Source of the DNA: an uncultured Clostridia bacterium
GTDB lineage: Bacteria; Bacillota; Clostridia; Christensenellales; CAG-138
Length of the DNA: 64,000 bases
Direction: 5' to 3'
Assembly: GCA_934633695.1 (NCBI GenBank)
Contig: CAKTYT010000002.1
Location: 38,767 to 102,766, forward strand
The notes under the pieces were generated by a model. The model saw only the letters and a program-made list of their open reading frames with translations, made no database searches and was not told the origin of the DNA. Positions 1,629 through 55,715 of the stretch are shown here, piece by piece (within the stretch, counting starts at the first letter, position 1; each line of letters starts with the position of its first letter). The translations under genes were made by a program, and so were the position numbers.

Positions 1629-2284
1629 TGGATAAGGCTCAGATCAAGGCTTACATCGCAGCTCGTGTTGCAAAAGAGCTTAAGGACGGAGACGTTGTCA
1701 ACCTCGGCATCGGTCTTCCCACACTCGTTCCCCAATTCCTTCCCGATGACGTCCACGTTATTCTTCAGAGCGAAAACGGCATTATCGGAACGGGCACTCT
1801 CACTGATGAAAACCGCGACCCCATTCACGTTGTTGATGCAGGCGGAAGCCCCGCAGCAATCGCACCGGGCGGTGCATTTATCGACAGTGCGACTTCTTTC
1901 GGTCTCATAAGGGGCGGTCATGTTGATGCAACTATCCTCGGCGGTCTCGAGGTCGATGAAGAGGGTTCTCTTGCAAACTGGATCATTCCCGGCAAAAAAA
2001 TGCCCGGCATGGGCGGTGCAATGGATCTTCTCGTCGGTGCGAAGAATGTCATTGTCGCAATGGAGCACACTGCGAAGGGCAATCCCAAGATCCTCAAAAA
2101 GTGCAAACTGCCTTATACCGCTGTTAAGTGCGTGACCAAGATCATCACTGAAATGGGTGTTATGGTCGTTACTGATAAGGGTCTTGAGCTTACCGAGTAC
2201 AACCCCGAATTCACCGTTGAGCAGATTCAGGCTGCAACTGAAGCAACGCTCATAATTTCGCCCGACCTTAAGCCCATGGCATAA
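1628..2284 (+). CDS. Family I CoA-transferase, subunit B (AtoA/CtfB/ScoB type)
   Basis: The product carries the SENG active-site motif (LQSENGIIGTG). Its start overlaps the subunit A stop (TAATG), which suggests translational coupling. Confidence 0.85.
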   Translation: MDKAQIKAYIAARVAKELKDGDVVNLGIGLPTLVPQFLPDDVHVILQSENGIIGTGTLTDENRDPIHVVDAGGSPAAIAPGGAFIDSATSFGLIRGGHVDATILGGLEVDEEGSLANWIIPGKKMPGMGGAMDLLVGAKNVIVAMEHTAKGNPKILKKCKLPYTAVKCVTKIITEMGVMVVTDKGLELTEYNPEFTVEQIQAATEATLIISPDLKPMA

Positions 2285-2324
2285 GATCTTGCAGAAGCAA
2301 AAGGTCGATTACAATTAACACAAA

Positions 2325-2362
2325 ACGGTACGCCCGGAACTCTCCCGAGTGTACCGTTTTTG
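2325..2362 (+). terminator. Rho-independent terminator of the CoA-transferase operon
   Basis: The stem ACGGTAC (2325-2331) / GTACCGT (2351-2357) has an inner CGGGA/TCCCG pairing and is followed by a T-run. Confidence 0.75.
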
Positions 2363-2726
2363 ATTATCGAGCTTCAATTCCCGTCGATGAATGCATGCGT
2401 TGAACCCGGTTTCAATGTAAATCCGGGCAGATTATATTTCCTCATTACATGGTGCAGATGCAACGAACAGCCTCGGCACATTGTTCTCAGCATATCGTTG
2501 TTATGACACATGCAAAATGCCCGAGCCGCTTTCGTGACCCGGATGTCAGATTGGAGATACTTTGCGTGGTACAATCGTGAAGGTGCGGAACTGTTCTTTT
2601 GTTTGGAAGCTTAACTATACAACTTTCATCGCCATGTTTCAAGAATCGTGGACAAATTACTTTCTCGGTGTTATACTTCTCACATCTTCTTCAAAATTCG
2701 GAGAAAAATATTCATCGGAGGCCCCT

Positions 2727-3065
2727 ATGTCCACTTCAAAGGAATACTTAAACTTCATACTGGAACAGCTATCCTGTCTGCCCGACATCACATACCGGCA
2801 GATGATGGGCGAGTACATTGTCTACAACGGTGGAAGAATTGCCGCATATATCTGCGATGATAGGCTGCTAGTAAAGCCTGTTCCCGCAGCATATTCACTC
2901 ATGCCGAACGCTCCCGAGGAACCGCCTTATCCAGGTGCAAAGCCCATGCTGCTTGTTGAAAATGTCGATGACAGGGTATTTATGGAAGAGCTTTTCACGG
3001 CCATTTTTCCCGAGCTGCCCCTGCCAAAGCCAAAAAAGCCCCGTACTAAGAAAACGGAAGACTAA
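2727..3065 (+). CDS. TfoX N-terminal domain family protein
   Basis: The product MSTSKEYLNFILEQL...YRQMMGEYIVYNGGRIAAYICDDRLLVKP matches the TfoX_N pattern. The ATG at 2727 has GGAGG 5 nt upstream. The ORF-track start at 2562 is unsupported. Confidence 0.6.
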   Translation: MSTSKEYLNFILEQLSCLPDITYRQMMGEYIVYNGGRIAAYICDDRLLVKPVPAAYSLMPNAPEEPPYPGAKPMLLVENVDDRVFMEELFTAIFPELPLPKPKKPRTKKTED

Positions 3066-3182: not shown

Positions 3183-4564
3183 ATGAAACCGAATTCAGCT
3201 GACAGAGCCTTCCTCGGAACCGAACCCATCGGTAAGCTGCTTTTTAATCTCGCCATTCCAACTGTTGTCGCTCAAATCGTCAATATGCTTTACAATGTGG
3301 TCGACAGAATCTATATCGGTCACATGCCCGGTACGGGGAACCTCGCCCTTACGGGCGTCGGCGTATGCCTCCCGATAATACTGATCGTTTCGGCATTCTC
3401 GGCTTTTGTCAGCTCGGGCGGAGCTCCCCGTGCTTCCATTTTCATGGGCAAGGGGGACACTGATTCCGCCGAAAAAACGCTTGGCGGCTGTGTGACATTT
3501 CAGATTATTGTCTCCGTTGTTTTGACAGTCGTGCTGCTTATCTTCGGTGACAAGCTGCTTCCGTTATTCGGGGCAAGCGAAAACACCATTGGCTATGCCT
3601 CGGATTACCTCGGGATCTATGCCATAGGCACGATTTTTGTTCAGCTCACGCTGGGTCTTAATGCATTCATAACCGCTCAGGGCTTTGCCCTCACCGGAAT
3701 GTTGACCGTCCTTATAGGAGCAGAAACATTGCCCTTGACCCACTTTTTATATACTGTTTTAAAATGGGGGTACGCGGAGCAGCACTCGCAACTGTTATTT
3801 CGCAGGGAATATCGTGCATATGGGCACTCCGGTTCATCACGGGCAGGAAAACTGCAATCCGATTAAAACGAGAAAATTTATCCGCCGGACTGAAATTTCT
3901 CCCTCCCTGCCTTTCGTTAGGCCTTGCAAGCTTCATGATGCAGGCGAGCGAGAGCGTCATTTCCCTCTGTTTCAACTCGTCGCTGCTCAAATACGGCGGT
4001 GATATTGCAGTCGGAGCGATGACAATTCTTTCAAGCGTCATGCAGTTTGCAATGATGCCCCTGCAAGGCGTTGCTCAAGGTGCCCAGCCCATAACAAGCT
4101 ACAACTTCGGAGCGGGAAATGTCAAGCGTGTGAAACAGAGCTTTAAATATCTCTTGACAGTCTGCGTTACCTATTCACTGCTCCTATGGGGTGCCATTAT
4201 GCTGTTCCCGGAGCTGTTTGCAAAGATGTTCTGTCCGAATGCAGGGCTCATTGAATTTGCGGCAAAGTCACTCCGCATCTACTGCGGCGTTCTGTTCCTG
4301 TTCGGCATACAGATCGCATGCCAGATGACGTTCATTTCCATCGGAAATGCTCTATGGTCCATAATCGTTGCCGTACTGCGTAAATTTGTCCTGCTGATAC
4401 CGCTGATTTATATTCTCCCGTCATTCCTGTCCGACAAGACCACGGCAGTGTACATGGCAGAACCCGTTGCGGATGCCATTGCGGTCACCTGCACGGCAAT
4501 AATCTTTTTCATACAATTCCGAAAGTCTCTGAGAACACCGGATAGTTCACAAAAGCTCAAGTAA
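3183..4564 (+). pseudogene. MATE family efflux transporter, frameshifted (or assembly error)
   Basis: ORFs 3183..3866 and 3764..4564 are the N- and C-halves of one MATE protein. Frame 0 reads ...TVLIGA up to 3722. The continuation NIALDPLFIYCFKMGVRGAALATVISQ is open in the other frame from 3725. One nt is missing at the A-run 3724-3726. Confidence 0.8.
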
Positions 4565-24387: not shown

Positions 24388-26997
24388 TTATGCGAGGCCC
24401 AGTGCGGAACGCATAATCATCGTTGCATCGACAACAGAAATCTCTCCGTCGCCGTTCACGTCACCTGCTTCAAGGTTAAGACCCGTTTCGGGAATAAGAC
24501 CCATTGCATAGCGCATTGCGAGTACAGCATCGGTAATTGTAACGGAACCGTCGCCGTCGATATCGCCGGTTGCAGGAGTTGATGAGGAGGTCAGGCGTAC
24601 ATTATCGAGGTATGCACAGTCATCGTTCCTGTCAACACTGCCGTCCTTTGTGTAAGTCCAGCTGAAGGTATAGCTGCCTGCCTGAGCTGCGGTGTAGGTG
24701 TAGCTGTCCCAGTTAAGCTCACCCGACTTTGCAAACTGCTCAGTGCCGTTGACAGCAAATTTGAGTTTGTCATAGTTACTTTCACTGCTTACCTTGTAAT
24801 CAAAGCTCAGCGTGTCGCCTGCCTGCATCTGAACGGTGAGTGTTACTGCGGAGGAGCTGTTTGAAACGCCTTCATTGCTGCTCTTTGCATAGTCACCTGC
24901 ACATACCCAAGGATACTGGCCGTTGCTGTCGAATACGAGCCTGCCGCCTTCAACGTTGAGAGCGGAACCGAGAGTATGTCCGATTTTAACGTTCTTGACC
25001 CATGCCCTGTCTTCGCCCTGTGCACCGCTTGCATCCTTTACGAACTCAAACCTGACTTCAAAGGTTCCGTCCTGAGGAGCATAGTATTCATAGGTCACAA
25101 AGCCGTTTGTGCTTGTCTCCGAGAGTACGGTTTCGCCGTTAATAACGAGCCTGAATGTATCTCCCGCACCTGCATCGACACGGTAATCAAACCTTACGGA
25201 CATGTTTTGCTGCAGCTCAACGTTTGCCTTGAGGGTGGAAACACTGTTGTTTACGCCTGCATTGCCGCTCTTTGCACCATTGCCCTCTTCGTCAATGACC
25301 CAGGGATAGAGTGCATCATTTTCAAACTGTACGGCAGAACCTTCTGCATTGACAGCGGAATCAAGAGTACCGAATACGGCAACATTGCTGATGTATGCCT
25401 TATCATCGCCCTGAGCACCGCTTGCATCCTTGACAAATTCCCAAGTGAGGAGCTTTTCACCGCATCCGGGGATGATTCCGTCAAACAAGCCTTCTGCATT
25501 ACCGTTTGTTTCAAAAATAACCTCGCCGTCAACACAGAACCTCAGCTTGTCGCCCTGTGCAGCACTTACGCGATAGTTAAATGTAATCCTCTGGTTTGCA
25601 CCGAGGCTTGCATTTGCACTGAGGGTCGAGGTCGAGTTGTCAACGCCTGCATTGCCGCTTGCTGCGATACCGTCTTCGCAGCTCCAGGGATACTGACCTG
25701 CGGAGAAGAAGTTAAGGATACGCTCTGTTGACTCACTGTTGAGCGAAGCAAACTTGAGAATGTCCCTGACGCAAAGCAGACCTGCACCGCCGCCCGCAAG
25801 AACGGGAGCACTTGCATTGCCCTTAATCGCTTCGCAAACTGCATCGGGTGTCATGTTCTTATTAAAGCTCTTGAGCATTGCCGCAACACCGGCAACGTGG
25901 GGGGTCGCCATGCTCGTACCGTCGAGATTGCGGTAACCGCCGCCCTTGGCCGCACTTCTGATGTTGACGCCGGGAGCGGTAATATCAACACAGGTACCGG
26001 TGTTGGAGAAGTAGGCCATTGCCTTCGATGAATCGTGTGCGGCAACGGTAATTGCTCTTTCAACATTGCCGGGGCAGTAATTCATTGCATTGCCGCTGTC
26101 GTTGCCCGATGCAACGCAGTAAACAGTGCCTGCATCGGAACCGTTTTCGATTACCTCGGTGTACACGGGATGACCCTGTTCGTTGCAGGGACCTCTGAGA
26201 CTGAGGTTTACCGCATCCGCACCATTGAGGTACGCATATTCCATAGCTGCCGCAATATTGACTGTATCGCCATAGCCCTCGCTGTCAAGTGCTTTAAGGG
26301 GCATGACCTTGACATTGGGAAGAGTGCCGTCAAGGACAGTACCTGCAACATGAGTGCCGTGGTAGTGATCGTCTTCAGGGTCTGCATCGTTGTTCTCAAA
26401 GTCGTAGCCTGCAACGAGCCTGCCGGCAAGGAACTCATGATCGCTGTCGCAGCCGGTATCGACAACCGCAACAACAACCTCGGGAAGGTTGTTTACACTG
26501 CCGACTTCACCGAGAAGCCATTCATTATAGTTGAATGCATTTACATGGTCATCGCCGTAGCCCCAGGAAAGGAAGCTGTCCTCACCGGGAGTCTGGCAGA
26601 TGCTCATGATGGTATCGGGAGCAACGTATTCAACGCCCTTCTGCTTTTCGTAAACTTCGGCAGCCTTCTTTGCCTCTTCGACGGAAGCATACTGAATTAC
26701 ATGCCAGTCATTGTGACCGCTTACGTGAGCAACACTGCCGGTATAATCCGGTTCTTCAACACTCTTTACGATAATGCGTGCATTTGCATACGGTTCGGTA
26801 TCCGCATTTTTCTTTGCATCGGCAATTTCATATTTCTTTGCCATTGCGTTGAACCTGCTCGTAAAATCAAGCAGTTCTTCAATTTTCGCTGCTCTTTCGG
26901 CAGCGGTCATCCCGTTATCGCTTTCTGCGGAAACAACGGGGATGAGAGTCAGGCACATGATAATGCTCAAAAGCAGTGCCAAAAACTTCTTCATCAT
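24388..26997 (-). CDS. Secreted S8 (subtilisin) family serine peptidase with three ~125-aa beta-sandwich-like repeats and a C-terminal dockerin
   Basis: The catalytic triad motifs are VAVVDTG, HGTHVAG and GTSMATPHVAG. The dockerin is GDIDGDGSVTITDAVLAMR...GDVNGDGEISVVDATMIMR. The start MMKKFLALLL has GGAGG upstream. Confidence 0.9.
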   Translation of the reverse strand: MMKKFLALLLSIIMCLTLIPVVSAESDNGMTAAERAAKIEELLDFTSRFNAMAKKYEIADAKKNADTEPYANARIIVKSVEEPDYTGSVAHVSGHNDWHVIQYASVEEAKKAAEVYEKQKGVEYVAPDTIMSICQTPGEDSFLSWGYGDDHVNAFNYNEWLLGEVGSVNNLPEVVVAVVDTGCDSDHEFLAGRLVAGYDFENNDADPEDDHYHGTHVAGTVLDGTLPNVKVMPLKALDSEGYGDTVNIAAAMEYAYLNGADAVNLSLRGPCNEQGHPVYTEVIENGSDAGTVYCVASGNDSGNAMNYCPGNVERAITVAAHDSSKAMAYFSNTGTCVDITAPGVNIRSAAKGGGYRNLDGTSMATPHVAGVAAMLKSFNKNMTPDAVCEAIKGNASAPVLAGGGAGLLCVRDILKFASLNSESTERILNFFSAGQYPWSCEDGIAASGNAGVDNSTSTLSANASLGANQRITFNYRVSAAQGDKLRFCVDGEVIFETNGNAEGLFDGIIPGCGEKLLTWEFVKDASGAQGDDKAYISNVAVFGTLDSAVNAEGSAVQFENDALYPWVIDEEGNGAKSGNAGVNNSVSTLKANVELQQNMSVRFDYRVDAGAGDTFRLVINGETVLSETSTNGFVTYEYYAPQDGTFEVRFEFVKDASGAQGEDRAWVKNVKIGHTLGSALNVEGGRLVFDSNGQYPWVCAGDYAKSSNEGVSNSSSAVTLTVQMQAGDTLSFDYKVSSESNYDKLKFAVNGTEQFAKSGELNWDSYTYTAAQAGSYTFSWTYTKDGSVDRNDDCAYLDNVRLTSSSTPATGDIDGDGSVTITDAVLAMRYAMGLIPETGLNLEAGDVNGDGEISVVDATMIMRSALGLA

Positions 26998-27051
26998 TTC
27001 TTCCTCCACGTTTTTTATTTGATTCGCCGTTTCAAACCGCAAATCCATATT

Positions 27052-27080
27052 ATTATATCATCTTCGGCGTATATTGACAA
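27052..27080 (-). promoter_or_regulatory. Sigma-70-type promoter of the protease gene
   Basis: On the minus strand the promoter reads TTGTCA - 17 nt - TATAAT. Confidence 0.55.
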
Positions 27081-27195
27081 GTATAAATTATCCCTTATCG
27101 GCAGGCCAATCCCGCCTCACGATGCAAAGCGACTGCGTGTGACCGTGATGCCGTATGGCTATCCCACACATGTCCGATGAATCGTGGATAGACTG

Positions 27196-27621
27196 TCAGT
27201 GCGAGCTGCCGAATACATCATCCCTGCCGGGTTGGGCAAACAGTTCTCCGAATTTGATTTTTCCGAACATACCGAACCTGTATGTTCTTCCAACGATGAC
27301 CGAATATCCGTCTCTGTGTTCCAGACTGACAATAATTGCATCTGACTCCTTTCCCTCGGACACGACGGACCCGTTCCAAGCAATTCCGCTGACTTTGAGC
27401 TCACCTTTCAGAGCTGATTTCCGGTGAGCCTCAACCAAGCCGTCAATTACCTTTTTTGAATCAGGGAATTCGATTCCGTCGTGAACCGCAGTCGCTGCCG
27501 CCGTACCATCCGGTCTTAGGATCGCTCCTACGGGATAAAATTCTTTGTTTTTCACAAGCAGCTTTTCCACCGGCGGCAAAATAAAATTGAGCAGTGTTTC
27601 GCAGTCTTCTTTTGGCGTCAT
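27196..27621 (-). CDS. Hypothetical cytoplasmic protein
   Basis: The 141-aa ORF lies between the two dockerin genes. I recognise no motif and see no signal peptide. Confidence 0.55.
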   Translation of the reverse strand: MTPKEDCETLLNFILPPVEKLLVKNKEFYPVGAILRPDGTAAATAVHDGIEFPDSKKVIDGLVEAHRKSALKGELKVSGIAWNGSVVSEGKESDAIIVSLEHRDGYSVIVGRTYRFGMFGKIKFGELFAQPGRDDVFGSSH

Positions 27622-27747
27622 GGCTATATTCTCCTTATTTGTAATGCTGACTTATTCGACCGGAGTTAGTTAAAAAACATTGTCATATGGCTGTTTAGTA
27701 TGTGAAACGCCCAAATCTTTTCGTTCGGGCGTTTACATACTGAATTA

Positions 27748-30069
27748 TTATTTTGTAGGGAGAATTGTCGCCCAACGCATAATTACGAGTGCGTCAGCGG
27801 CATCGACGGTGCCGTCCCCGTTGACATCAGCCACTGCAAGCTGCTCATCCGTCAAAGTCTCAATGCCCATCGCATACCTGAGTGTCATGAGAGCATCCGT
27901 AATCTCAACAACACCGTTGCCGTCAACGTCACCCTCAATTGGCTGAGGTTCGGGATTGTAATCGATAATTTCGACATCGACCGCTGCAAGCTCGCCATAA
28001 CGGTAAACAGTAAAGATATAGCTCTTTCCCGCTTCGAAGCTGTAATCATCATTTCTTCCGTCTGCCGAGCCTATATCGCTGACGTATTCAATGACAGGAC
28101 CATCCTCCGACCAATACCTTGGGTTGACAATGCACCAGTCATAGACGCCTGCCGGGATGATATTAGTTGCGGATTCGTTGTAATAGACAACATCATCCTC
28201 TGTCATGAAGTCGCCATCTGCATTTTCCGGAACCTTGTACTCAAAAAGTGCATATTCCGAAACGGCACCCTCTGCACCGTAAGCAAATACCGTATTGCCG
28301 GGCAGGATTGTGTTGCCGTATTCGACTGCATCGGCATCGAGAAGCATCTGGAAGCCGGAACCATCGAGCATAACTTCGTCAATTACCCTAAGCGTTACAG
28401 ATACCATGCTGAGGTCAAAATACATTGAAGCCACGGTGATATTTGCTGCAATTTCCGCTCCGTTGTAATCCCATCCGGTAAAAGCATAGCCCTCATGCAC
28501 GGGAGCGTCGGGATAATCCTGTTCGGTAAGCACATAACCCCTTTCAACCTCAACCGTTGAAATAATCTCATTTGTCAAACCATCGACGAAAGAAACAACC
28601 GGGTTCGTCTCCTCGCCGGGGTCGGAAACTTCGAGGTCATTCTCAATAAACATGCCGACAATGCTTCCTCCGTTTCCGATAACACCGCATTCGGTCACTG
28701 CTGCCGTGCGGGGATCAACAATTGTGAGGCCTGTCACATCATAGTCTGAGAATCTGCCCCAATAGAGCCTGCCTGTATTGTGATCAAATGCAAGCGACTG
28801 CTCTCTCTTCAGACCAAGACCCGTTGTACCGACAAGGGTTCCGACACCCGTGGCAAGGTCAACGGTGTAGAGTCTGCTGTCACTGCCGTACGATTCAGTG
28901 AGAGTGTATGCAGTGCCGTCAGTACTGATCGCAAGTGCGGCGGGCGTAGCACTGCCGCAAACTACGGGAGCAACTGCCGTAAGCGTTCCGCTCAATCGGT
29001 CAACCGTGTAGAGTGTACGGACGTTTTCTTCGTTAATGCCAAGGGCGTAGAGCGTCTGCGTGCTGTGGTCATATGCCATGTCGCGGATGGTGATATTACC
29101 CGCTTCGGCACCCATCGTAACTTCCTTCGATGCAAAATCCATCTTAAAGAACTGCTTTGAGGTGTTAAAGCCGTAAACCACGCCGCCTGCAAATTCAGCC
29201 GCTGCGATAGTCAAGCCGTTAAGATCGATCACAGTGGTAAAATTCGGTGAAAGGTCGGTGAAAGTCATGAAATTTCCACCCATGCTGCCGTAAAGCACAA
29301 CGGGGGGAAGTCCTTCGGTAACGGTGACATTGCATTCTGCCGCTGCACCGCCGTCAACCGTTTCGATGGTTATTACTGCATTGCCGACTGCAACGCCGTA
29401 TACGAGACCGTTTTCATTTACAGTTGCGATGCCTTCATCGGAAGAAGTGAAAGTCACTTCCTTGTTGAATGTGTTTGCCGGAAGGACGTTCCATACCAGC
29501 TGAACCATTCTGCCGGATTCAACGGAAATATTCTCGTCAACAGTGATTTCACTGCTGAGCACGGGGGCACCTACATAAACATTGTCAAGCCATACGGTGT
29601 CATCGTTTCTGTCAACGCTCGAATCCTTTTGATAGGTCCACTCGAGCGTATGCTCGCCTGCGGTAAGTGCATAACTGAAATTTGACCAGTCAATAACATC
29701 TGAATAAGTTGCGATCGTTGTGCCGTCGATTTTAAACATAAACTTGTCATAAGTTCTTTCAGTGCTGACTTTATAGTCAAACGATACGATTTCACCCTCA
29801 TTTGCTGTGACAGTGGCAGTCACTGTACTGGCAGAGCTGCCAACTCCCTGGTTTGTTGAAGCAGCCCAATGATTTTCGCCGTCAACGGCAAAAGGATACT
29901 CCCCTTCGCTGACGAATTCGATCGTTCCGCCCTCAACATTCAATGCCTGGCTGAGTGTGAGGCCATCTCTGCCGGCAGGGGGTACAACTTTACTTTCTGC
30001 AAAAACGGGAATTGTTACAACAGAAATCGCCATAACAATTGCCATGAGCAGTGCAAAAGTTCTTTTCAT
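27748..30069 (-). CDS. Secreted dockerin protein with N-terminal ~125-aa module, Big_2 domain, propeller-like repeats and a Listeria-Bacteroides-type repeat
   Basis: The product has a signal peptide and a Big_2-like segment (VTFTSSDEGIATVNENGLVYGVAVGNAVITI). It also has a GYAFTGW repeat and the dockerin GDVDGNGVVEITDALMTLR...DVNGDGTVDAADALVIMR. AAGGAG serves as the RBS. Confidence 0.85.
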   Translation of the reverse strand: MKRTFALLMAIVMAISVVTIPVFAESKVVPPAGRDGLTLSQALNVEGGTIEFVSEGEYPFAVDGENHWAASTNQGVGSSASTVTATVTANEGEIVSFDYKVSTERTYDKFMFKIDGTTIATYSDVIDWSNFSYALTAGEHTLEWTYQKDSSVDRNDDTVWLDNVYVGAPVLSSEITVDENISVESGRMVQLVWNVLPANTFNKEVTFTSSDEGIATVNENGLVYGVAVGNAVITIETVDGGAAAECNVTVTEGLPPVVLYGSMGGNFMTFTDLSPNFTTVIDLNGLTIAAAEFAGGVVYGFNTSKQFFKMDFASKEVTMGAEAGNITIRDMAYDHSTQTLYALGINEENVRTLYTVDRLSGTLTAVAPVVCGSATPAALAISTDGTAYTLTESYGSDSRLYTVDLATGVGTLVGTTGLGLKREQSLAFDHNTGRLYWGRFSDYDVTGLTIVDPRTAAVTECGVIGNGGSIVGMFIENDLEVSDPGEETNPVVSFVDGLTNEIISTVEVERGYVLTEQDYPDAPVHEGYAFTGWDYNGAEIAANITVASMYFDLSMVSVTLRVIDEVMLDGSGFQMLLDADAVEYGNTILPGNTVFAYGAEGAVSEYALFEYKVPENADGDFMTEDDVVYYNESATNIIPAGVYDWCIVNPRYWSEDGPVIEYVSDIGSADGRNDDYSFEAGKSYIFTVYRYGELAAVDVEIIDYNPEPQPIEGDVDGNGVVEITDALMTLRYAMGIETLTDEQLAVADVNGDGTVDAADALVIMRWATILPTK

Positions 30070-30263
30070 TTACTTTTCTCCTTCTCTGTACACCTTAATT
30101 TATCCGATACATATAATAGATTCGGACCGTTTTATTATACCAGTCATTCATGGGTGCCGCAAGTGTCAATTCCGATTATGCTGCGGAAAAGCAGACAGTA
30201 TCCGGATTTTGCTTCGGCATGTACCGTTCTGCCAAGCTGTGAAGCAAACCTGTTAAATTACAG

Positions 30264-30301
30264 AAAAATAGGCTGCCGCAGAAAGCTCTTCCGCAGCAGC
30301 C
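30264..30301 (-). terminator. Probable terminator after the cohesin gene
   Basis: An imperfect 12-bp stem (30271-30283 with 30289-30300) is followed by a T-rich run on the minus strand. Confidence 0.55.
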
Positions 30302-30326
30302 CCGATACTATTCAATTAAGGTTTTG

Positions 30327-31094
30327 TCAGTCTTCCTTCTTCCTGAAGATTACGATACCTGCACCTGCTGCAAGTGCCGCAACGCCTGCACCGATGATGC
30401 TGATTGCACCGGTGGAAGGTGCCGGAGGCGTGGTGGGTTCAGCAGTGGGTTCGCCGGGAACCTCAGTGGGCTCAGCAGGAACTTCAGTGGGAACCTCGGT
30501 GGGTTCAACGGGAACTTCAGTGGGAACCTCGGTAGGCTCAACGGGAACTTCAGTGGGAACCTCGGTAGGCTCAACGGGAACCTCAGTTTCAGTTGCGGGA
30601 ACTACGACTGCACCATTGACAGGAGTATTCTCTACGGGAATCGAATCTAAGTCGGGCATGTAGGAGAACTCTTTTACCTGGAGAGCAAGTTCAATGGTCG
30701 TGCCGGGTTCAACAGCTTCGCTGACGGTGAAGTTAGCGGTGAAAAAAGTACCCTGAGCAGTGAGTGGTTCGGTGGGCATCATAACGCCGAGACGAATGGA
30801 GTTGTTCTCATCGTTCTGACTGATAAGAGCCATACCGCCGCCGGGCAGATTCGAAAGAGCTTCGCCCTTTTCAATGCCGTTGAGGGTGAGCTTAGTATTG
30901 TCAAAATCGACCCAGATGTTGACAGAATGAACGGCAAATTCGCCTGTAACGTTCAAGCTGACATCGACGGTTTCACCGGGCTGTGCATTGACGGTTTCAA
31001 CAGCGATAACAACATCGTTTTCAGCTGCTGCGGGAATCGCAATGAGGCATACAGCCATCATTGCTGCAAGTGCGAGTGCAAAAATCTTTTTCAT
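30327..31094 (-). CDS. Cohesin domain protein with Pro/Thr/Glu-rich linker and C-terminal anchor
   Basis: A signal peptide is followed by a cohesin-like domain (VETVNAQPGETVDVSLNVTGEF...FTANFTVSEAVEPGTTIEL). Then come a TEVPVEPTEVP linker and the tail PSTG-AISIIGAGVAALAAGAGIVIF-RKKED. Confidence 0.8.
   Translation of the reverse strand: MKKIFALALAAMMAVCLIAIPAAAENDVVIAVETVNAQPGETVDVSLNVTGEFAVHSVNIWVDFDNTKLTLNGIEKGEALSNLPGGGMALISQNDENNSIRLGVMMPTEPLTAQGTFFTANFTVSEAVEPGTTIELALQVKEFSYMPDLDSIPVENTPVNGAVVVPATETEVPVEPTEVPTEVPVEPTEVPTEVPVEPTEVPTEVPAEPTEVPGEPTAEPTTPPAPSTGAISIIGAGVAALAAGAGIVIFRKKED
30456..30590. repeat. 33-nt in-frame tandem repeat encoding the (EVPVEPTEVPT)n linker
   Basis: The unit cttcagtgggaacctcggtRggYtcaacgggaa is repeated about 4 times inside the cohesin gene. 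Confidence 0.8.
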
Positions 31095-39534: not shown

Positions 39535-39570
39535 ATGCACAATAAATATTTTGCATGTGGAGGAATCAAC

Positions 39571-41202
39571 ATGAAAAGAAAACTAATTGCATTAATTACT
39601 GCATGCCTGTTTGCGGCATGTACTGTCACCCCGACACTCGCCCTGGGAAATGCCAACAGCAGGATAACGTCAACAACCGTTGGACCAATGCCGAGTGAAA
39701 GAGTCGAAAGGCAATGCGGCACTACGAAAAAAATGATAACATCGCTGCTCTCGCCAACACTCGATGAAAACTGCTCTGTCGCTGCCTCGCCCGCCGTAAG
39801 TTCCTATAACGAGCATGACGTTGCATTGATGAGACTGTTTCTTGAGATTACAGACTCAAACGGCATAAAAAACGGACAGAAGATCAATAACTATTCCGGC
39901 GTTGAATATGATGCAGACGATCCTTCAACGTGGGCCAATATCGATTGGACGGATGAAGGTGAGCTTGCCGTTGTTCATTTTTGGTCGATCAATTTCACGG
40001 AGTATGTAACCGACCCCGAAACCGGCTGGGAATACCCAACATCAAGTGAAATGCTGCTTGTAGGGGATCTTGACCTCAGCGGATGCCAAAGTCTTGTTGA
40101 CCTTAATGTGCCTCAAAACAATTTGACATCTGTTCGTGCCGATAACTGTCCTTCGCTGGAAATTTTTTATGCGGGCGAGCAGGGAGATTTTGTCGGTGCA
40201 GGTGATTCTGATCGCACTCTCGTTTATGTATCTGCCGATAATTGCCCGACTCTCTGGTACATCGGTGCACCAAACAATGATCTTGAACACTTCAGTTTTA
40301 AAAATGCACCAATGCTCGTCGAAGTCATGGTTGATAACAACCCGAGGCTTAGCGAGGTGAATATCAGCGAAAGTCCCGTGATTGAAGCATTTTCTGCCAA
40401 TAACACTGCGATTGCTTCCATAGATTTAAGCGGACGCAGCAGTCTTCTGCTCGTACATGCTGACAGCTGTCCGATAGAAAGCGTTAATCTTTCCAACTGC
40501 ACAGCAGATTTTGAATTGAGCGTTGCTTTCGCACGTACTTTGACAGAGTTAGATCTCTCCGACTGTACCGGTCTGAATGCACTCTATATTGACGACACCT
40601 CCGTTTCGCAATTAAACTTTGATGTTTGTTCAAATCTCCGTGCTGTATCAATCGGAAATTCACCGTTTGAAGAGATCGACCTGACGAACTGCCCCCTGAT
40701 CTATTGGTGCAACACAAATGCAGTCAATGAAACGCTGCATCAAGCAAAGCTGACCGTCGATGAACATGTTCTCACTATTTCCGCTGAAAACGGCTCCATT
40801 GGCTTAAGTTTCGCGTTCTTTAGCATTTATGATGATTCTTACGATCAGTCATCTGACTTTTTGAAAGTGTATTCCACAGCTCCGGTTGAAAATGATTTTA
40901 TCGGATGGGAAAGTCAATCCGGAGAAATCGTCAGCACGCAAACGGAGTTCATGCTCACTCCCGAATACATTGCTCAGGTTCATGCCGCTGATTTCTCCCT
41001 GACTGCAAGATATGCAGTCTCATTTCTTCCCGGAGATGCAAACCGTGACGGCGTAATCAACACGGAGGATGTGCTTTTGATCATGCGCAGTGCACTTGGT
41101 CTTCAGTCCGGAATCAGCATTGAGGTCTGCGATGTAAACAACAACGGCGTCATCGATATTGCAGACGCAGTTCTCGTCATGCGCAGCGTACTCGGACTTT
41201 AA
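39571..41202 (+). CDS. Secreted leucine-rich-repeat protein with C-terminal dockerin
   Basis: The signal peptide is MKRKLIALITACLFAAC. Repeated LxxLxxxxCxxL units follow (LDLSGCQSLVDLNV..., LDLSDCTGLNALYI...). The dockerin is GDANRDGVINTEDVLLIMR...DVNNNGVIDIADAVLVMR. GGAGG serves as the RBS. Confidence 0.85.
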   Translation: MKRKLIALITACLFAACTVTPTLALGNANSRITSTTVGPMPSERVERQCGTTKKMITSLLSPTLDENCSVAASPAVSSYNEHDVALMRLFLEITDSNGIKNGQKINNYSGVEYDADDPSTWANIDWTDEGELAVVHFWSINFTEYVTDPETGWEYPTSSEMLLVGDLDLSGCQSLVDLNVPQNNLTSVRADNCPSLEIFYAGEQGDFVGAGDSDRTLVYVSADNCPTLWYIGAPNNDLEHFSFKNAPMLVEVMVDNNPRLSEVNISESPVIEAFSANNTAIASIDLSGRSSLLLVHADSCPIESVNLSNCTADFELSVAFARTLTELDLSDCTGLNALYIDDTSVSQLNFDVCSNLRAVSIGNSPFEEIDLTNCPLIYWCNTNAVNETLHQAKLTVDEHVLTISAENGSIGLSFAFFSIYDDSYDQSSDFLKVYSTAPVENDFIGWESQSGEIVSTQTEFMLTPEYIAQVHAADFSLTARYAVSFLPGDANRDGVINTEDVLLIMRSALGLQSGISIEVCDVNNNGVIDIADAVLVMRSVLGL

Positions 41203-50914: not shown

Positions 50915-50950
50915 TTCGCTCACTCTGCAAACAAATTTACGGGGGCGTAC

Positions 50951-51295
50951 ATGGTTTCGACGGGGATTGTGGATGCCGGATAAGCGAGTCGAAGCCCCGA
51001 GCTTCGTTAAAAGCGGGAAATCTTAAAAAATAAACGACGAATATAACTTCGTACCCGCTGCTGCTTAATTAGCACAGCTGTCCGCCCGCAGTTGCCCACG
51101 ACTGCGGATACGGGCATCATCAATGTGGGGAACCAACCGGAGAGTGTCTCGTCTCCGGCGGGATTAAGAGGCTACTGAGCTTGCAACCCCGTTGGTGGGG
51201 GTGCCGGTGAGGGAATGTCAAATCGCCAACTACGCTCGTAGAAAGTCTTGCAGACTGGTTTTCGGACAGGGGTTCGACTCCCCTCGCCTCCACCA
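50951..51295 (+). ncRNA. ssrA: tmRNA (transfer-messenger RNA)
   Basis: The 5' GGGGGCG pairs with the 3' CGCCTCC-ACCA, including the G3-U70 alanine identity pair. The T-arm is GGGGTTCGACTCCCC. The tag frame AAC GAC GAA TAT AAC TTC GTA CCC GCT GCT GCT TAA spans 51043-51078. The gene lies directly after smpB. Confidence 0.93.
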
Positions 51296-51341: not shown

Positions 51342-51746
51342 ATGGAGTTATCTGATTTTTCCAAGGTAAATGAATCGGAATTGTCCGACGAACAAACGAA
51401 ATTGGATGCGGTATGGGATTTATGGGCAGGAGGCAATGCCGTCTCCCCCTATGAAGAGTTGATGACCTACCAGAGTGAAGTCAATAACGGCGGACATGAC
51501 CAATATTTTTCCAATCTGGAAAGTTCAGGCGACTTGGAAAAAGAAATGAAAGTCTTGGAATCCGTCTTGTCGACAACATTGAATGATAATTTGCAGAAAG
51601 CACACAAAGCATACCTGATGCTTTGCGAAAACGAAGATGACGAAGAATCCCAGTTACTGCTCGAACAGTGCGATGATGTATTCTTCGAAAACCAGGACGA
51701 TGTCAATAGTGTCCTAATAAAGTACGCTGCAAAAATTGGACTGTAA
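51342..51746 (+). CDS. DUF4375 / DMP19-like protein (immunity-protein-like)
   Basis: The product is MELSDFSKV...YQSEVNNGGHDQYFSNLE. The NGG-x-x-Q-[YF]-F motif is characteristic of that family as I recall it. The ORF-track start at 51192 lies inside tmRNA and was rejected. Confidence 0.6.
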   Translation: MELSDFSKVNESELSDEQTKLDAVWDLWAGGNAVSPYEELMTYQSEVNNGGHDQYFSNLESSGDLEKEMKVLESVLSTTLNDNLQKAHKAYLMLCENEDDEESQLLLEQCDDVFFENQDDVNSVLIKYAAKIGL

Positions 51747-51749
51747 ATC

Positions 51750-52381
51750 ATGAGCGAACATACTCATGTCCGAAGGGCAAAGCCCGGGGACGAGAAAATT
51801 CTTGCATACATTCAGACTGAAAGTTGGAAGGATGCCTTTAAGGGAATAATACCTGACGGCATCCTTTTAAGTTGCACTGAAGTTGAACGTGCCATTGAGA
51901 TGTACAGAAAACTCCTGGCAGAAAATAAGGGAAATGGATACATTTTGGAATTGAACGGACCCCCCATTGCATTGCGTGGTGGGATGCTGCCAGAGAAAAG
52001 GATATAGTTGGGGTTGCCGAGTTGATCTGCATCCATTCACTCAAGGATAACCGACGCAAAGGTTACGGCAGAATAATGATGAGGCGAATACTTGATGATA
52101 TTGAACAGGCCGGATATTCAGAGCTGATATTATGGGTATTTGACAGCAACATGAGTGCGATCAGGTTCTATGAGGCTCACAGCTTTGCTGCAAGCGGAAG
52201 AAAGCAGCCCGCCTTTGGTGCGAGAAGAGATGTATGTCAAATCCATAATGGGATGATAGGTCATAAAGATCTGTTTCGACAAACTTGCCGACATAAGGAA
52301 ATGGACATGGCAAAGGCTGTTACCGCCACAACCTTCTGCGAAAATGATGAAAAGGCATTGCTCAGCGTGCATTTTGTATGA
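51750..52381 (+). pseudogene. GNAT family N-acetyltransferase disrupted by a 5-bp tandem duplication (and possibly a second frameshift)
   Basis: ORFs 51750..52007 and 52022..52381 are two parts of one GNAT gene (…ICIHSLKDNRRKGYGRIMM…). Removing one copy of ATTGC from ATTGCATTGC at 51966-51975 restores ...ELNGPPIAWWDAAREKDIVGVAELICIHS. Confidence 0.8.
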
Positions 52382-52533: not shown

Positions 52534-52869
52534 TTATTTTCTTGTTTTTTTGCAGTATTTGCAGCGTCTGGGAGGAACGAATCCATTCTCCTCAATTTTT
52601 TTCTGAAAATCCGCATAGTAAGTGAATTTTCTGCCGCACACACAGCAGGTAAGCTCCTTATCGACGTACTTTTTCTCGGTGGAAACGTTGACTCCGGGTT
52701 TTGCCTTCGTCCTTCTTGTGACCTTTGTCCCAACTTTGACCTCGCGGATCGTCGAGCGGACGATGAACGAGCTGCCCACCATCTTTTCTTCGCAGAAACG
52801 CTGCTCCATCTCCACAATTCTCTCCTCTCTGATCTCAAAATCGTCCTCGTGATACTTTGCGTAACCCAT
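52534..52869 (-). CDS. Small protein with C-terminal CxxC...CxxC zinc ribbon (zf-trcl-like)
   Basis: The C-terminus LTCCVCGRKFTYYADFQKKIEENGFVPPRRCKYCKKTRK fits a zinc ribbon. AAGGAG serves as the RBS. Confidence 0.65.
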   Translation of the reverse strand: MGYAKYHEDDFEIREERIVEMEQRFCEEKMVGSSFIVRSTIREVKVGTKVTRRTKAKPGVNVSTEKKYVDKELTCCVCGRKFTYYADFQKKIEENGFVPPRRCKYCKKTRK

Positions 52870-52941
52870 AGTTTTTCTCCTTTTTTGTTTTTCTTTGCGT
52901 GTTTACCTGCAAAAACAGCAGTGCCTGTCGGACAGGCTTGC

Positions 52942-53938
52942 CTTGCAACTTATCCCGTTTCAGCTCCCCATTTTTTGCTATTTCTGAGTGGAATAGATAG
53001 GCTGCACTTGAAGTGTTGTACCGCTGTACCCTTGCAACCTATCCCGTCTCAAGGTTCGCTTTTTGGGCTATTTCTGAACGGAATAGATGGGCTGTACTTG
53101 CAGTGTTGCACTGCTGTACCCTTGCAACCTATCCCGCTTTAGCTCCCCACTTTTTTGTGGGACGGCCGAACGGAATAGATAGGCTGCACTTGCTGTTGTA
53201 CTGCTGTACCCTTGCAACCTATCCCGCTTCAGCCAAGGATTTTTTGTGGGACGGCCGAACGGAATAGATAGGCTGTGCTTGCACTGTTGCACTGCTGTAC
53301 CCTTGCAACCTATCCCGCTTCAGCCAAGGATTTTTTGTGGCTATTTCTGGGCGGAATAGATAGGCTGTGCTTGCACTGTTGCACTGCTGTACCCTTGCAA
53401 CCTATCCCGCTTCAGCCAAGGATTTTTTGTGGCTATTTCTGGGCGGAATAGATAGGCTGCACTTGCACCGTTGTACCGCTGTACCCTTGCAACCTATCCC
53501 GCTTTAGCCATGCATTTTTTGTGGCTATTTCTGGGCGGAATAGATAGGCTGCACTTGCAGGGCTGCACTGTTGTACCCTTGCAACCTACCCCGCTCCAGT
53601 TGCACGTTTTTTGGGCTATTTCTGGACGGAATAGATAGGCTGCACTTGCAGGGCTGCACTGTTGTACCCTTGCAACCTACCCCGCTCCAGTTGCACGTTT
53701 TTTGTGGGACGGCTGAATGGAATAGATAGGCTGCACTTGCACCGTTGTACCGCTGTACCCTTGCAACCTATCCCGCTTTAGCTCCCCACTTTTTTGTGGG
53801 ACGGCCGAACGGAATAGATAGACTGCACTTGCTGTTGTACTGCTGTACCCTTGCAACCTATCCCGCTTCAGCCAAGGATTTTTTGTGGGACGGCCGAACG
53901 GAATAGATAGGCTGTGCTTGCAACCTATCCTGCTTTAA
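52942..53938. repeat. Array of 11 tandem ~90-nt mosaic repeats plus a truncated 12th; non-coding, function unknown
   Basis: Unit starts are 52942, 53031, 53121, 53211, 53302, 53394, 53486, 53578, 53669, 53760 and 53850, with a truncated unit at 53917. The conserved blocks tgtacccttgcaacctatcccgct and ggaatagataggctg alternate with a small set of reassorting variable segments. Confidence 0.95.
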
Positions 53939-54066
53939 CAAGTCACTTTTACTGTTTATTGAAGAAATAAATTGTCGATTTTTGCTGTCTAACAATTTGA
54001 AACTGTCGATTTTGATAAACAGGATTTATGGAGATGCTTTCGTTCGTCAATATAATAAAAGTCAAC

Positions 54067-54099
54067 AAAAAAAAGCTCCATGCCAAATTTGCATGGAGC
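54067..54099 (-). terminator. Rho-independent terminator after the coiled-coil hydrolase gene
   Basis: A perfect 9-bp stem GCTCCATGC/GCATGGAGC (54075-54083 with 54091-54099) is followed by TTTTTTTT on the minus strand. Confidence 0.9.
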
Positions 54100-54110
54100 C
54101 CTCTATTCGG

Positions 54111-55715
54111 TTAATCTAACTCATAGCCTGCCGGAATGAAGTCACGAATGAGCTCGCAGACCCTATCCGGTCGTTCCTCATGGGGCAGGTGTCCGGAATT
54201 GCGAATGAGCTCAAACCTTGCATTTTTAAGCACGGCAAGGTAGATATCCTTTCGTTCAAGCGAATGCCACCTGTCCCCATCACCCCAAAGGACGAGTACT
54301 TCATGGTTAATCTCGCGAAGGAGCGTGAGGACATCCTCTTCGTCAAACGCATTAACTGTCCTTCTGACACTGTAACGAACATCGCTGCTTATAAACGGCA
54401 TCGAATACTGCTCGATATCATGCTCTTTAATTGCGGTGTGGTCAAATACACACTCATCGAGCAAAGCCGCAACGCTCTTCTGTGAAAAAACTCGTCCTGC
54501 AAACACGCCGAGGAGGCCGCTCTCAAGCATGCGGACGGACAGAGGCATGTCGGACGTAATACCGCCCGGCGAAATAAGGACGATCTTATCAACACGCTCC
54601 GGATGGAGCTTTGCAAGGCTGAGAACATAACCTGCCCCCATTGAAAAGCCTGCGAAATGAGCAGTTTCAATTCCGATTGCATCCATGAACCTTGCAAGGC
54701 TCTCTCCATGGTCTTCAATCGAAAAATCGAAGAAATCCGGCCGCTGCGAGTAGCCGTGACCGGCAAGATCAAGCAGAATAACTCTGTAACTCCTTGCAAG
54801 TTTCTCAAATACTTTGTTAAATGTATAGAGCGACTGACCAGCACTGTGAACGAGGATTATCGGCTCACCTTTGCCCATTTCCATATAGTGAAAACGTGCC
54901 GTTTCGTATTTTGTAACAATGCTGCGTGCATTCTTTTTTAGGTTTACAACGTCGTTTTCCGCAGATGCAATATCTGCTGTCAGCTTTTCAAGCCTCTCCT
55001 TGGCCGACTTTTGCCTTTCGGTCAGCTTTTTCAGCTTTTCCTCAAGCACATTACATGCGGTCGATGCCGATTGCAGTGAAGCGGAGGCCAGTTTCATCTT
55101 TTCATTTGCCGAGTCATATTCTGAGCGAATGGATTTAAATTCTGTTTCCGAAACGCTCAGCCTTGCCTTTGCAGCGTCTGAAAGCTCACGCTTTTCATCA
55201 AGTTTTTCGCCTGCTGCTCTGACATCACTTTCAAGCCGGGCCTTTTGATCGGCAGACGGAGCCTCACTTGCAGCTGTTGCGGCTTTCAGAATCTGTTCAG
55301 CTTTCTTTTTCTCGTCTTCTGCACTGCGTACTGCGGCGAAAGCACTGCTGTATTCCGTTTTTTTAAGGGCATAATCTGCTTTCGACTTGTCAAAACGGAA
55401 CTTTACCTCGTTAAAGCTCGGTTCAATCTCCTTTTTTTCTTTTTCTGACTTATTCAATTCACGTCGGGCATTCTCCGAATCCTTGAGCAGCTTTGCGACG
55501 GCATCGCTTGCAGCCCTGTACGCCTTTTCTGCGTTTGTTTTTGCCTGACTCAGTTCCTTTGTCTTCCTCTGTGCAGACTCAACTGCACTGCTGTCTTTAT
55601 TTACTGCCTTAACTTCACTCTTCCTTGCCGGAAGCTCACCGGGAAGCGTTACCTCAACATACTCTCCGGTGTGTTTTGAATTAATAAATTTTTTTATCTC
55701 TAATGAAATACCCAC
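54111..55715 (-). CDS. Fusion of ~270-aa Ala/Lys/Glu-rich coiled coil with C-terminal alpha/beta hydrolase
   Basis: The GTG start follows GGAGGGG. The C-terminal domain has HSAGQS, the nucleophile elbow GFSMG, and GDGDRW ... NSGHLPHEE as the acid/His pair. Confidence 0.8.
   Translation of the reverse strand: MGISLEIKKFINSKHTGEYVEVTLPGELPARKSEVKAVNKDSSAVESAQRKTKELSQAKTNAEKAYRAASDAVAKLLKDSENARRELNKSEKEKKEIEPSFNEVKFRFDKSKADYALKKTEYSSAFAAVRSAEDEKKKAEQILKAATAASEAPSADQKARLESDVRAAGEKLDEKRELSDAAKARLSVSETEFKSIRSEYDSANEKMKLASASLQSASTACNVLEEKLKKLTERQKSAKERLEKLTADIASAENDVVNLKKNARSIVTKYETARFHYMEMGKGEPIILVHSAGQSLYTFNKVFEKLARSYRVILLDLAGHGYSQRPDFFDFSIEDHGESLARFMDAIGIETAHFAGFSMGAGYVLSLAKLHPERVDKIVLISPGGITSDMPLSVRMLESGLLGVFAGRVFSQKSVAALLDECVFDHTAIKEHDIEQYSMPFISSDVRYSVRRTVNAFDEEDVLTLLREINHEVLVLWGDGDRWHSLERKDIYLAVLKNARFELIRNSGHLPHEERPDRVCELIRDFIPAGYELD

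Follow-up and report, generated by a model that had tools for sequence, protein, structure and literature searches.

Bacterial minisatellites, or variable-number tandem repeats (VNTRs), such as the mycobacterial interspersed repetitive units (MIRUs) and other species-specific repeats (PMC3372372), are intergenic tandem units of tens to ~100 bp. Bacterial interspersed mosaic elements (BIMEs) and repetitive extragenic palindromes (REPs) belong to families whose copies, over 100 in number, are dispersed and which have a RAYT (REP-associated tyrosine) transposase of their own (PMC2817692, PMC3333891). In the sopC centromere of plasmid F (12 x 43 bp), SopB binds a 16-bp inverted repeat that is present in every unit (PMC3177203), and the repeats of type III toxin-antitoxin (TA) systems, ToxIN, CptIN and TenpIN, are ~34-45 nt long, 2-6 in number and accompanied by a toxin that is a ToxN-fold endoribonuclease of ~170 aa (PMC3401426). 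Here we describe a tandem array that resembles each of these in part. It occupies positions 52941..53938 of a 64,000-nt stretch of contig CAKTYT010000002.1 (GenBank assembly GCA_934633695.1, positions 38,767 to 102,766, forward strand) from an uncultured Clostridia bacterium; this whole stretch is referred to as the window, and coordinates are positions within it. The array, ~1 kb of ~91-bp hairpin-forming non-coding repeats, is genuine. Our preferred reading, to which we assign a probability of roughly 0.55, is that it is a lineage-specific, quasi-palindromic minisatellite of the VNTR type, made by slippage and unequal exchange, and no dedicated genetic device.

Like minisatellites, the array is intergenic, with degenerate edges, a homogenised interior, an occurrence limited to one lineage and no dedicated protein partner. 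Its unit number appears to differ between short-read assemblies (4 versus at least 10), in which collapse is possible. It differs from minisatellites in the elaborate quasi-palindromic build of its unit, in which two boxes are conserved and the loops vary block by block, and whereas MIRUs are dispersed at many loci, this repeat occurs at one. The alternation of inverted boxes, the two linker classes, the imperfect hairpins, the mosaic structure and the position just after a terminator are all features of Escherichia coli BIMEs (PMC2817692, PMC3333891), but the boxes of the array are two arms of one long repeat and not self-palindromic, and neither dispersed copies nor a RAYT gene were seen in the region searched. 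A dozen head-to-tail, dyad-bearing units with a highly conserved dyad recall sopC. Unlike sopC, however, the array is chromosomal, its unit is twice as long, its dyad arms lie 24-40 nt apart, no homologous array was found in the plasmids or phages searched, and no sopA/sopB-type genes were found in the window, in which 40 open reading frames (ORFs) were scanned with Pfam (4 small ORFs and 36 proteins; the 29 of these proteins that lie upstream of 43 kb were selected by a minimum ORF length of 170 aa). The type III TA layout (PMC3401426) is approached in that repeats, a hairpin and a small gene lie on one strand with an A-rich tract in every repeat, but the array has 11 units of 91 nt, and the adjacent zinc-finger protein has no nuclease signal and homologues that lack repeats.

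Tandem Repeats Finder (TRF) placed one array at 52941-53922, with 10.8 copies of period 92 that match at 84% and score 1061. The anchor CTTGCAAC[CT]TA[TC]CC occurs at 52942, 53031, 53121, 53211, 53302, 53394, 53486, 53578, 53669, 53760, 53850 and 53917, with anchor-to-anchor spacings of 89, 90, 90, 91, 92, 92, 92, 91, 91, 90 and 67 bp, and these 12 positions are exactly the unit starts read by eye in an initial annotation of this DNA. From TRF, the anchors, the alignment of the units and tables of their arms, the array is delimited as 11 units of 89-92 bp followed by a truncated twelfth A box; neither the array nor the features within it are assigned to a strand. Two conserved blocks, GGAATAGATAGGCTG with 11 matches versus 1.1 expected and CCTTGCAACCTATCCCGCT with 12 versus 0.01 expected, have every one of their matches within the array. 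Aligned with each other, the 11 units have the five-part layout that had been proposed, in which conserved blocks alternate with variable segments; the variable columns (41 of 93) are significantly clustered (runs test, P = 0.0004). The variable segment seg2 exists in six variants, more than first listed, and seg3, described initially as three alternative segments, is better seen as two sequence families with sub-variants. One T6 run per unit, an A5-6 tract on the minus strand, is invariant. In terms of its boxes, the array is composed of 12 A boxes (TTGCAACCTATCCCG) alternating with 11 A′ boxes (CGGAATAGATAGGCTGCA) in the order A, x (~40 nt), A′, y (24-26 nt), A, x, A′ and so on, with an A box at each end. 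The A′ box, CGG-AATA-GATAGGCTGCA, differs from an inverted A box by 4 inserted nt and by a single C/A mismatch that is fixed.

The conserved boxes are therefore mutual inverted copies, and long imperfect hairpins are possible on either strand. Pairing of an A box is possible with either of the A′ boxes next to it, and yields a junction hairpin (H1) or an intra-unit hairpin (H2) with the T6/A6 run as its apical loop. The 11-bp inverted repeat previously noted at the unit junctions was found at all 11, although the loop between its arms measures 24-26 nt, not 26-28 nt, and only 2 nt in the last unit. The H1 loop, read directly from the sequence, is itself a run of short YTGYAC repeats. At the last junction (53906..53929), the hairpin GATAGGCTGTG-ct-TGCAACCTATC has the 2-nt gap in place of the usual 24-26-nt loop, which looks like the result of a deletion between the TGCAAG direct repeats that flank the loop in other units. 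Mismatches between arms are all transitions; 8 cells would be G-U pairs on the plus strand versus 14 on the minus strand, and these correspond to approximately three independent events per strand sense. Pairing preserved as G-U only in a plus-strand RNA, as the initial annotation had it, does apply to the CTGTG arm variant, but the invariant central C/A mismatch present in every stem is a G-U pair only on the minus strand. As the one offsets the other, the net strand signal is nil, and assigning a strand by wobble pairs was given up as uninformative.

Variable segments have been reassorted between units. Four-gamete sets are present for s1 against s3 and for the seg2 variants D and F against the two seg3 families, as expected from the shuffling by unequal exchange or conversion that had been suggested, and adjacent units have segments in common in staggered registers. 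A second copy of units 3-4 (53121..53301) is found in units 10-11 (53760-53916; 93% identity, repeat family D4), a recurrence noticed at the outset that extends over 227 nt (53057-53283 versus 53696-53922, 93% identical), with a single-base difference between unit 3 and unit 10. The most diverged copies are units 1-2 (52942..53120), at the gene-proximal edge, whose identity to the inner units is ~70-80% in a pairwise matrix. Edge degeneracy of this kind is usual where unequal exchange homogenises an array. With head-to-tail non-coding units at one locus, a homogenised interior, degenerate edges, reassorted variants and no conservation in relatives, the array qualifies as a bacterial minisatellite or VNTR.

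The initial description of the array as non-coding stands: the periods drift between 89 and 92 bp and are not multiples of 3, and the short ORFs (≤97 aa) have no Pfam match, so that a coding repeat is ruled out. CRISPR arrays have one conserved 23-47-nt repeat alternating with unique, unrelated spacers of similar length. The array, also as first described, is not of this kind, as it has two conserved boxes per 91-nt unit and its variable parts are 11-16 nt long, related and recurring in several units; the Pfam scan of 40 ORFs across the 64-kb window returned no Cas family. Transposase, replication (Rep) and partition (Par) genes are likewise missing from these ORFs, as had been stated, and neither a relaxase nor an integrase was found among them. 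In an integron attC site, an imperfect palindrome lies between the cores R″ (RYYYAAC) and R′ (GTTRRRY), and an integrase is encoded nearby. An attC array was rejected because, on inspection of the sequence, TTGCAAC and GTTGCAC/GTTGTAC do not fit these cores, and no integrase was found in the window. In the window, the transfer-messenger RNA (tmRNA) is the one Rfam match above its gathering score. Matches over the array reach 13-18 bits at best versus the 70-80 required (E > 1), and ARAGORN detects no tRNA, results that rule out a known family of RNA or an array of tRNAs. The array fits no repeat or RNA family that has been catalogued, consistent with the inability of the initial annotation to place it.

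Within the 82 kb of this genome that were searched, the window plus flanks, a profile hidden Markov model (HMM) of the unit detected no copy outside the array, either in the 64-kb window (E ≤ 10) or in 18.5 kb of extra flank (E ≤ 1). The two-box pattern had no match in 185,579 GTDB species genomes, a collection without this species and in which the nearest CCA enzyme is 53% identical. It had none in JGI metagenomes, two patterns had none in IMG/VR, blastn had none in phages and plasmids, and the unit profile HMM matched nothing in any fetched locus. In a sister species (Logan run SRR32508931), the counterpart of the hydrolase encoded beside the array is 88% identical in amino acid sequence, and nucleotide identity is 80% along the CCA and hydrolase genes. 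The homology breaks off exactly at the stop codon of the hydrolase gene (window 54121), beyond which lies an unrelated, intact GNAT gene; both the array and the zinc-finger gene are missing at this syntenic site. Relatives with 57% identity have a diaminopimelate (DAP) epimerase gene at the site beyond the hydrolase and likewise lack the array, which is also missing from the loci of GTDB relatives whose CCA enzymes are 51-53% identical. The initial annotation had proposed that absence from (or wild variation in) close relatives and the lack of conserved neighbours, transcription and protein binding would together point to a neutral minisatellite, and on the comparative half of this the data agree: the array is missing from the syntenic site of the sister species and has no conserved neighbours. 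It is confined to one species of uncultured gut bacterium.

Within this species, the 111-aa zinc-finger protein is encoded on 22 metagenome contigs, from Hadza and other gut samples, most of which break in the array. Two assemblies (ERZ27287302 and Hadza B_5) have a 4-unit array consisting of units 1, 2, 10 and 11 plus the truncated unit, one other has units 1-4 and 6-11, and another, entering from the other side, has units 7-11. These counts come from short-read metagenome assemblies, which can collapse near-identical units, and the 4-unit form is either a real deletion allele, generated by exchange between units 3 and 10, or an assembly collapse.

The adjacent gene (52534..52869, minus strand), with a ribosome-binding site, GGAG, at 52877-52880, encodes a protein that, from Pfam, HMMER, homologue alignment and a structure model, begins with an MGYAKYHEDD helix, continues with a disordered linker and ends in a treble-clef zinc domain of the zf_Tbcl type. 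In the AlphaFold model (predicted local distance difference test, pLDDT, 75), the helix spans residues 4-29, the linker is disordered and the treble clef, at 71-109, is confident. A word-indexed search with this protein returned only the self-match, whereas an exhaustive HMMER search identified 114 relatives, of which more than 30 are full-length, ~100-135 aa, with an N-terminal MGWAKYxEDNxEIxxER motif and a C-terminal zf_Tbcl domain. The protein defines an undescribed family of small proteins composed of a helix, a variable linker and zf_Tbcl. No fold match to the model was found in the PDB with E < 0.5 (Foldseek), and no defence or nuclease family was identified by Pfam, which gives zf_Tbcl only, by PADLOC (0 matches) or by a PDB sequence search. 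In the homologue loci, the gene follows genes for proteins of ~390, ~400 and ~72 aa, the last helix-turn-helix (HTH)-like, and precedes one for a protein of ~155 aa; neighbours include resolvases or serine recombinases, IS110, RNase_T and methylases, and three of the loci are IMG/VR contigs. The gap upstream of the gene is 90-160 bp in the annotated homologue loci, and a conserved inverted repeat, ACGACAAAAACTGTCC, lies ~70 nt upstream of the homologues. No comparable tandem array or similarity to the unit was found in 7 + 25 homologue loci by TRF, blastn or nhmmer. The only other repeat seen near any member of the family is a 35-nt x 2.3 tandem repeat (positions 2723-2803 of one locus, L039), 71 nt upstream of the homologue and unrelated in sequence to the array. 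With homologues in phage-like or integrative and conjugative element (ICE)-like clusters that lack arrays, the zinc-finger gene in the window is a stray copy of a mobile-element gene, and the array is no family trait. The idea of a co-evolved protein and array was accordingly dropped once HMMER had found full-length homologues in loci without arrays, and the adjacent zinc-ribbon protein, put forward initially as a possible partner, loses that role as the other members of its family, in the same 7 + 25 loci, never carry such an array. A derivation of the array from the genes or spacer upstream of the homologues was also rejected, tblastx and blastn both being empty.

The array does not fill the whole region upstream of this gene, as had been thought, but is flanked by two further stretches. 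An AT-rich, non-repetitive spacer of 130 nt (53939..54069, minus strand; from sequence and promoter scans) separates it from the terminator of the hydrolase gene, and 72 nt (52870-52941) separate it from the zinc-finger gene. The proximal stretch contains a perfect palindrome, GCCTGTC-C-GACAGGC (52923..52937, minus strand), between the array and the ribosome-binding site, which has a GACA/TGTC motif in common with the conserved inverted repeat upstream of the homologues. In the AT-rich spacer there is a 14-nt direct repeat, AAAyTGTCGATTTT (family D6), at 53969-53982 and 54000-54013, 31 bp apart, which has GACA/TGTC in common with both the palindrome and the repeat upstream of the homologues. 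The TGTCGAT within it resembles a Spo0A-type 0A box.

The occurrence of the array at a single locus in a single species, its absence from the sister species, the lack of a partner, the degenerate edges, the reassortment, the absence of covariation, strand bias and a promoter, and the decaying flank all fit a minisatellite. As we envisage it, the array would have started from a ~91-bp segment with an inverted repeat, the A and A′ boxes, in non-coding DNA before the stray mobile-element gene, where the interval from the tmRNA gene to the core hydrolase gene is decaying and prone to rearrangement. In-place amplification by replication slippage and RecA-type unequal exchange would have followed; crossovers in the conserved boxes at differing registers would reassort the variable segments and so generate the mosaic, and the same exchange process would keep inner units alike while edge units decay. 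The boxes may be uniform as the substrate of concerted evolution and arm-to-arm correction, with the loop segments changing faster and in blocks, probably by template switching in quasi-palindromes. Any transcript crossing the array would then simply have it as a hairpin-rich 5′-leader of the zinc-finger gene. We infer how the array was amplified, that it is neutral and that the boxes are conserved through arm-to-arm correction; its anatomy, reassortment and distribution and the lack of covariation and strand bias are observed.

Several observations weigh against a neutral minisatellite. The boxes and the T6 run are invariant, whereas the adjacent 11-16-nt segments differ by 30-50%, a contrast that could result from purifying selection on the boxes and that is the main argument against neutrality; it can presumably also result from concerted evolution acting on the arms combined with template-switch mutation in the loops. 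Units assembled from other samples are each base-for-base identical to a unit in the window, so that the array shows no visible instability of sequence, a point tempered by the almost complete lack of diversity in this species anywhere in this region. A 401-nt stretch folds at z = -5.2 on the minus strand versus -1.7 on the plus strand, relative to shuffled controls, and a 1-kb neutral insert would be unusual in a compact bacterial genome.

The minus-strand fold counts in favour of the alternative that the array functions as structured RNA, which we regard as doubtful although the best placed of the rivals. A minus-strand transcript would start in 53939-54069 and run through the array into the zinc-finger gene, with H1 and H2 forming in each unit, and would serve as a stabilising or attenuating 5′-leader, or as a type III TA-like precursor cut at A6 into RNAs that bind the downstream protein. 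The order of terminator, AT-rich spacer, repeats, small hairpin (52923-52937), ribosome-binding site and small gene mimics a type III TA locus (PMC3401426). G-U pairs stand at the invariant mismatch in the centre of H1, and at two positions of H2 in its alternative register, on the minus strand alone, every unit has its one invariant A5-6 tract on that strand, and the AT skew makes the minus strand A-rich, like a sense strand. The wobble-type mismatches, however, occur in the plus sense too (the 8 versus 14 cells above), and RNAalifold found 0 compensatory pairs on the minus strand and 1 on the plus strand among 22-24 predicted pairs. The two variable arms do not covary: when all 36 combinations of six seg2 and six seg3 variants were built, the stability of the 8 observed combinations was no better than that of the unobserved ones (P = 0.45, plus; P = 0.22, minus), and covariation was rejected on both strands. 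No sigma-70-type promoter scoring ≥9/12 was found on the strand of the gene between the terminator and the zinc-finger gene; a relaxed scan gave one weak candidate, 8/12, that overlaps the terminator, and no terminator or promoter was found per array unit. The protein itself gives no ToxN, AbiQ, CptN, TenpN or other nuclease signal by Pfam, PADLOC, PDB sequence search, model or Foldseek, ~30 of its homologues lack upstream repeats, and there is no Rfam match. With no covariation, no strand bias in wobble pairs, no promoter or terminator per unit and no promoter found to drive the whole, the tandem structured small RNAs suggested initially are not supported, and the same applies to all three of the functions then proposed, protein-binding dyads, small RNAs and a copy-number switch, none of which gained evidence.

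More improbable than a structured RNA is a relic cis-acting DNA site, a set of protein-binding dyads that is centromere-like, as in sopC, or iteron-like. A mobile element integrating beside the tmRNA gene would have brought in the array together with the zinc-finger and DMP19 genes, and the binding protein would have been lost or be encoded elsewhere. Tandem units each with an inverted repeat are the arrangement of the 12 x 43-bp sopC (PMC3177203), the boxes are conserved and the spacers variable, the lack of strand bias fits a role at the DNA level, the tmRNA integration hot spot lies beside mobile-element-type genes, and the YTGYAC hexamers of the H1 loop could be binding sites. Yet no ParA/ParB, Rep, relaxase or integrase was found among the window ORFs scanned, and with arms 24-40 nt apart there is no compact dimer site, two findings that also count against the sopC-like dyads of the initial annotation. 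No such array was present in the phages, plasmids and viral contigs searched or beside the zinc-finger homologues in mobile elements, and nowhere in the window was the tmRNA 3′-end found duplicated as an attachment site (att) marking off an island; the island att site was ruled out on this ground.

We see only a slim chance that the array is a novel repeat-RNA module. Its eleven ~91-nt double-hairpin units would be transcribed from the minus strand as one precursor, and cutting at the invariant A-tract would release unit RNAs that bind or titrate the zf_Tbcl protein or another mobile-element protein. Such a module, captured once in this lineage, would be akin to type III antitoxins or protein sponges, but with a non-nuclease zinc-finger partner and with units over twice the length of any that are known. 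Least probable of all is a REP/BIME-like or NIME (Neisseria intergenic mosaic element)-like cluster, in which hairpin units mobilised by a RAYT or IS200/IS605-type enzyme encoded elsewhere would have piled up in tandem in alternating orientation, since, although the alternating inverted boxes, two linker kinds, imperfect hairpins with fixed mismatches and mosaic structure are as in BIMEs (PMC2817692, PMC3333891) and the site is intergenic, just after a terminator, there is no solitary or clustered copy elsewhere in the 82 kb, whereas REP families have about one copy per 5-10 kb, no Y1 transposase in the window and no match in the other genomes searched.

The hydrolase terminator and the tmRNA gene are positioned as initially annotated. 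The former (54070..54104, minus strand) is an intrinsic terminator with a 14-bp stem and then a T run, and belongs to a coiled-coil plus alpha/beta-hydrolase gene (54111..55715, minus strand), the last gene syntenic with the sister species. The tmRNA gene (50941..51295, plus strand) and the array are separated by a DMP19-like gene of the DNA-mimic family (51342..51746, plus strand), directly after the tmRNA gene, a frameshifted GNAT acetyltransferase gene (51750..52381, plus strand) and the zinc-finger gene. The GNAT gene is split into ORFs at 51750-52007 (85 aa) and 52022-52381 (119 aa) and is a probable pseudogene, a sign of decay in this neighbourhood. A 14-nt near-match, CTGAGCTTGCAACC / CTGTGCTTGCAACC, exists between the tmRNA gene (51175-51188) and the last unit (53912-53925). 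Local alignment of the units to the tmRNA gene scores no better than shuffles, so that an origin of the array from tmRNA was rejected and the near-match attributed to chance. A locus (L005, positions 1690-3025) from sample SRR34978386 has exactly the sequence of the window between the array and the last 8 nt of the tmRNA gene (CTCCACCA; window 51288-51295). Beyond that point, a large serine recombinase gene of at least 438 aa replaces the tmRNA body, and a serine-recombinase element has therefore integrated at the tmRNA 3′-end in that strain. The junction lies inside the last 8 nt of the gene, and this end of tmRNA is therefore a hot spot at which integration is still active in the species.

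The remainder of the window is ordinary chromosome, with recA, ftsK, murF, ddl, cob genes, smpB/tmRNA and genes encoding dockerin and cohesin proteins. The last of these, at 24388-31094 and 39535-41202, include a subtilase with a dockerin, a DUF2436 protein with a dockerin, and a cohesin protein, and the organism appears, from these predicted domains, to build a cellulosome-like complex. An in-frame 33-nt tandem repeat (4-4.6 copies, 30433-30587) in or beside the cohesin-domain gene (30327-31094) is probably the linker repeat of a scaffoldin-like protein. A MatE efflux gene (3183-4564, plus strand) is present as two overlapping ORFs (227 and 266 aa), is also split in metagenome gene calls (L055) and may be frameshifted.

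If the array is a lineage-specific minisatellite, it would be a clean example of a quasi-palindromic segment that has ballooned into a 1-kb mosaic array, and of modest practical value. Only if the RNA or protein-binding readings were true would it be a pointer to a new regulatory or defence-type module. The array breaks nearly every short-read assembly at this spot, and it could serve as a VNTR marker for typing strains of this uncultured, cellulosome-bearing gut bacterium. It also advises caution, in that conserved stems, shuffled loops and a CRISPR-like polarity can arise from concerted evolution alone.

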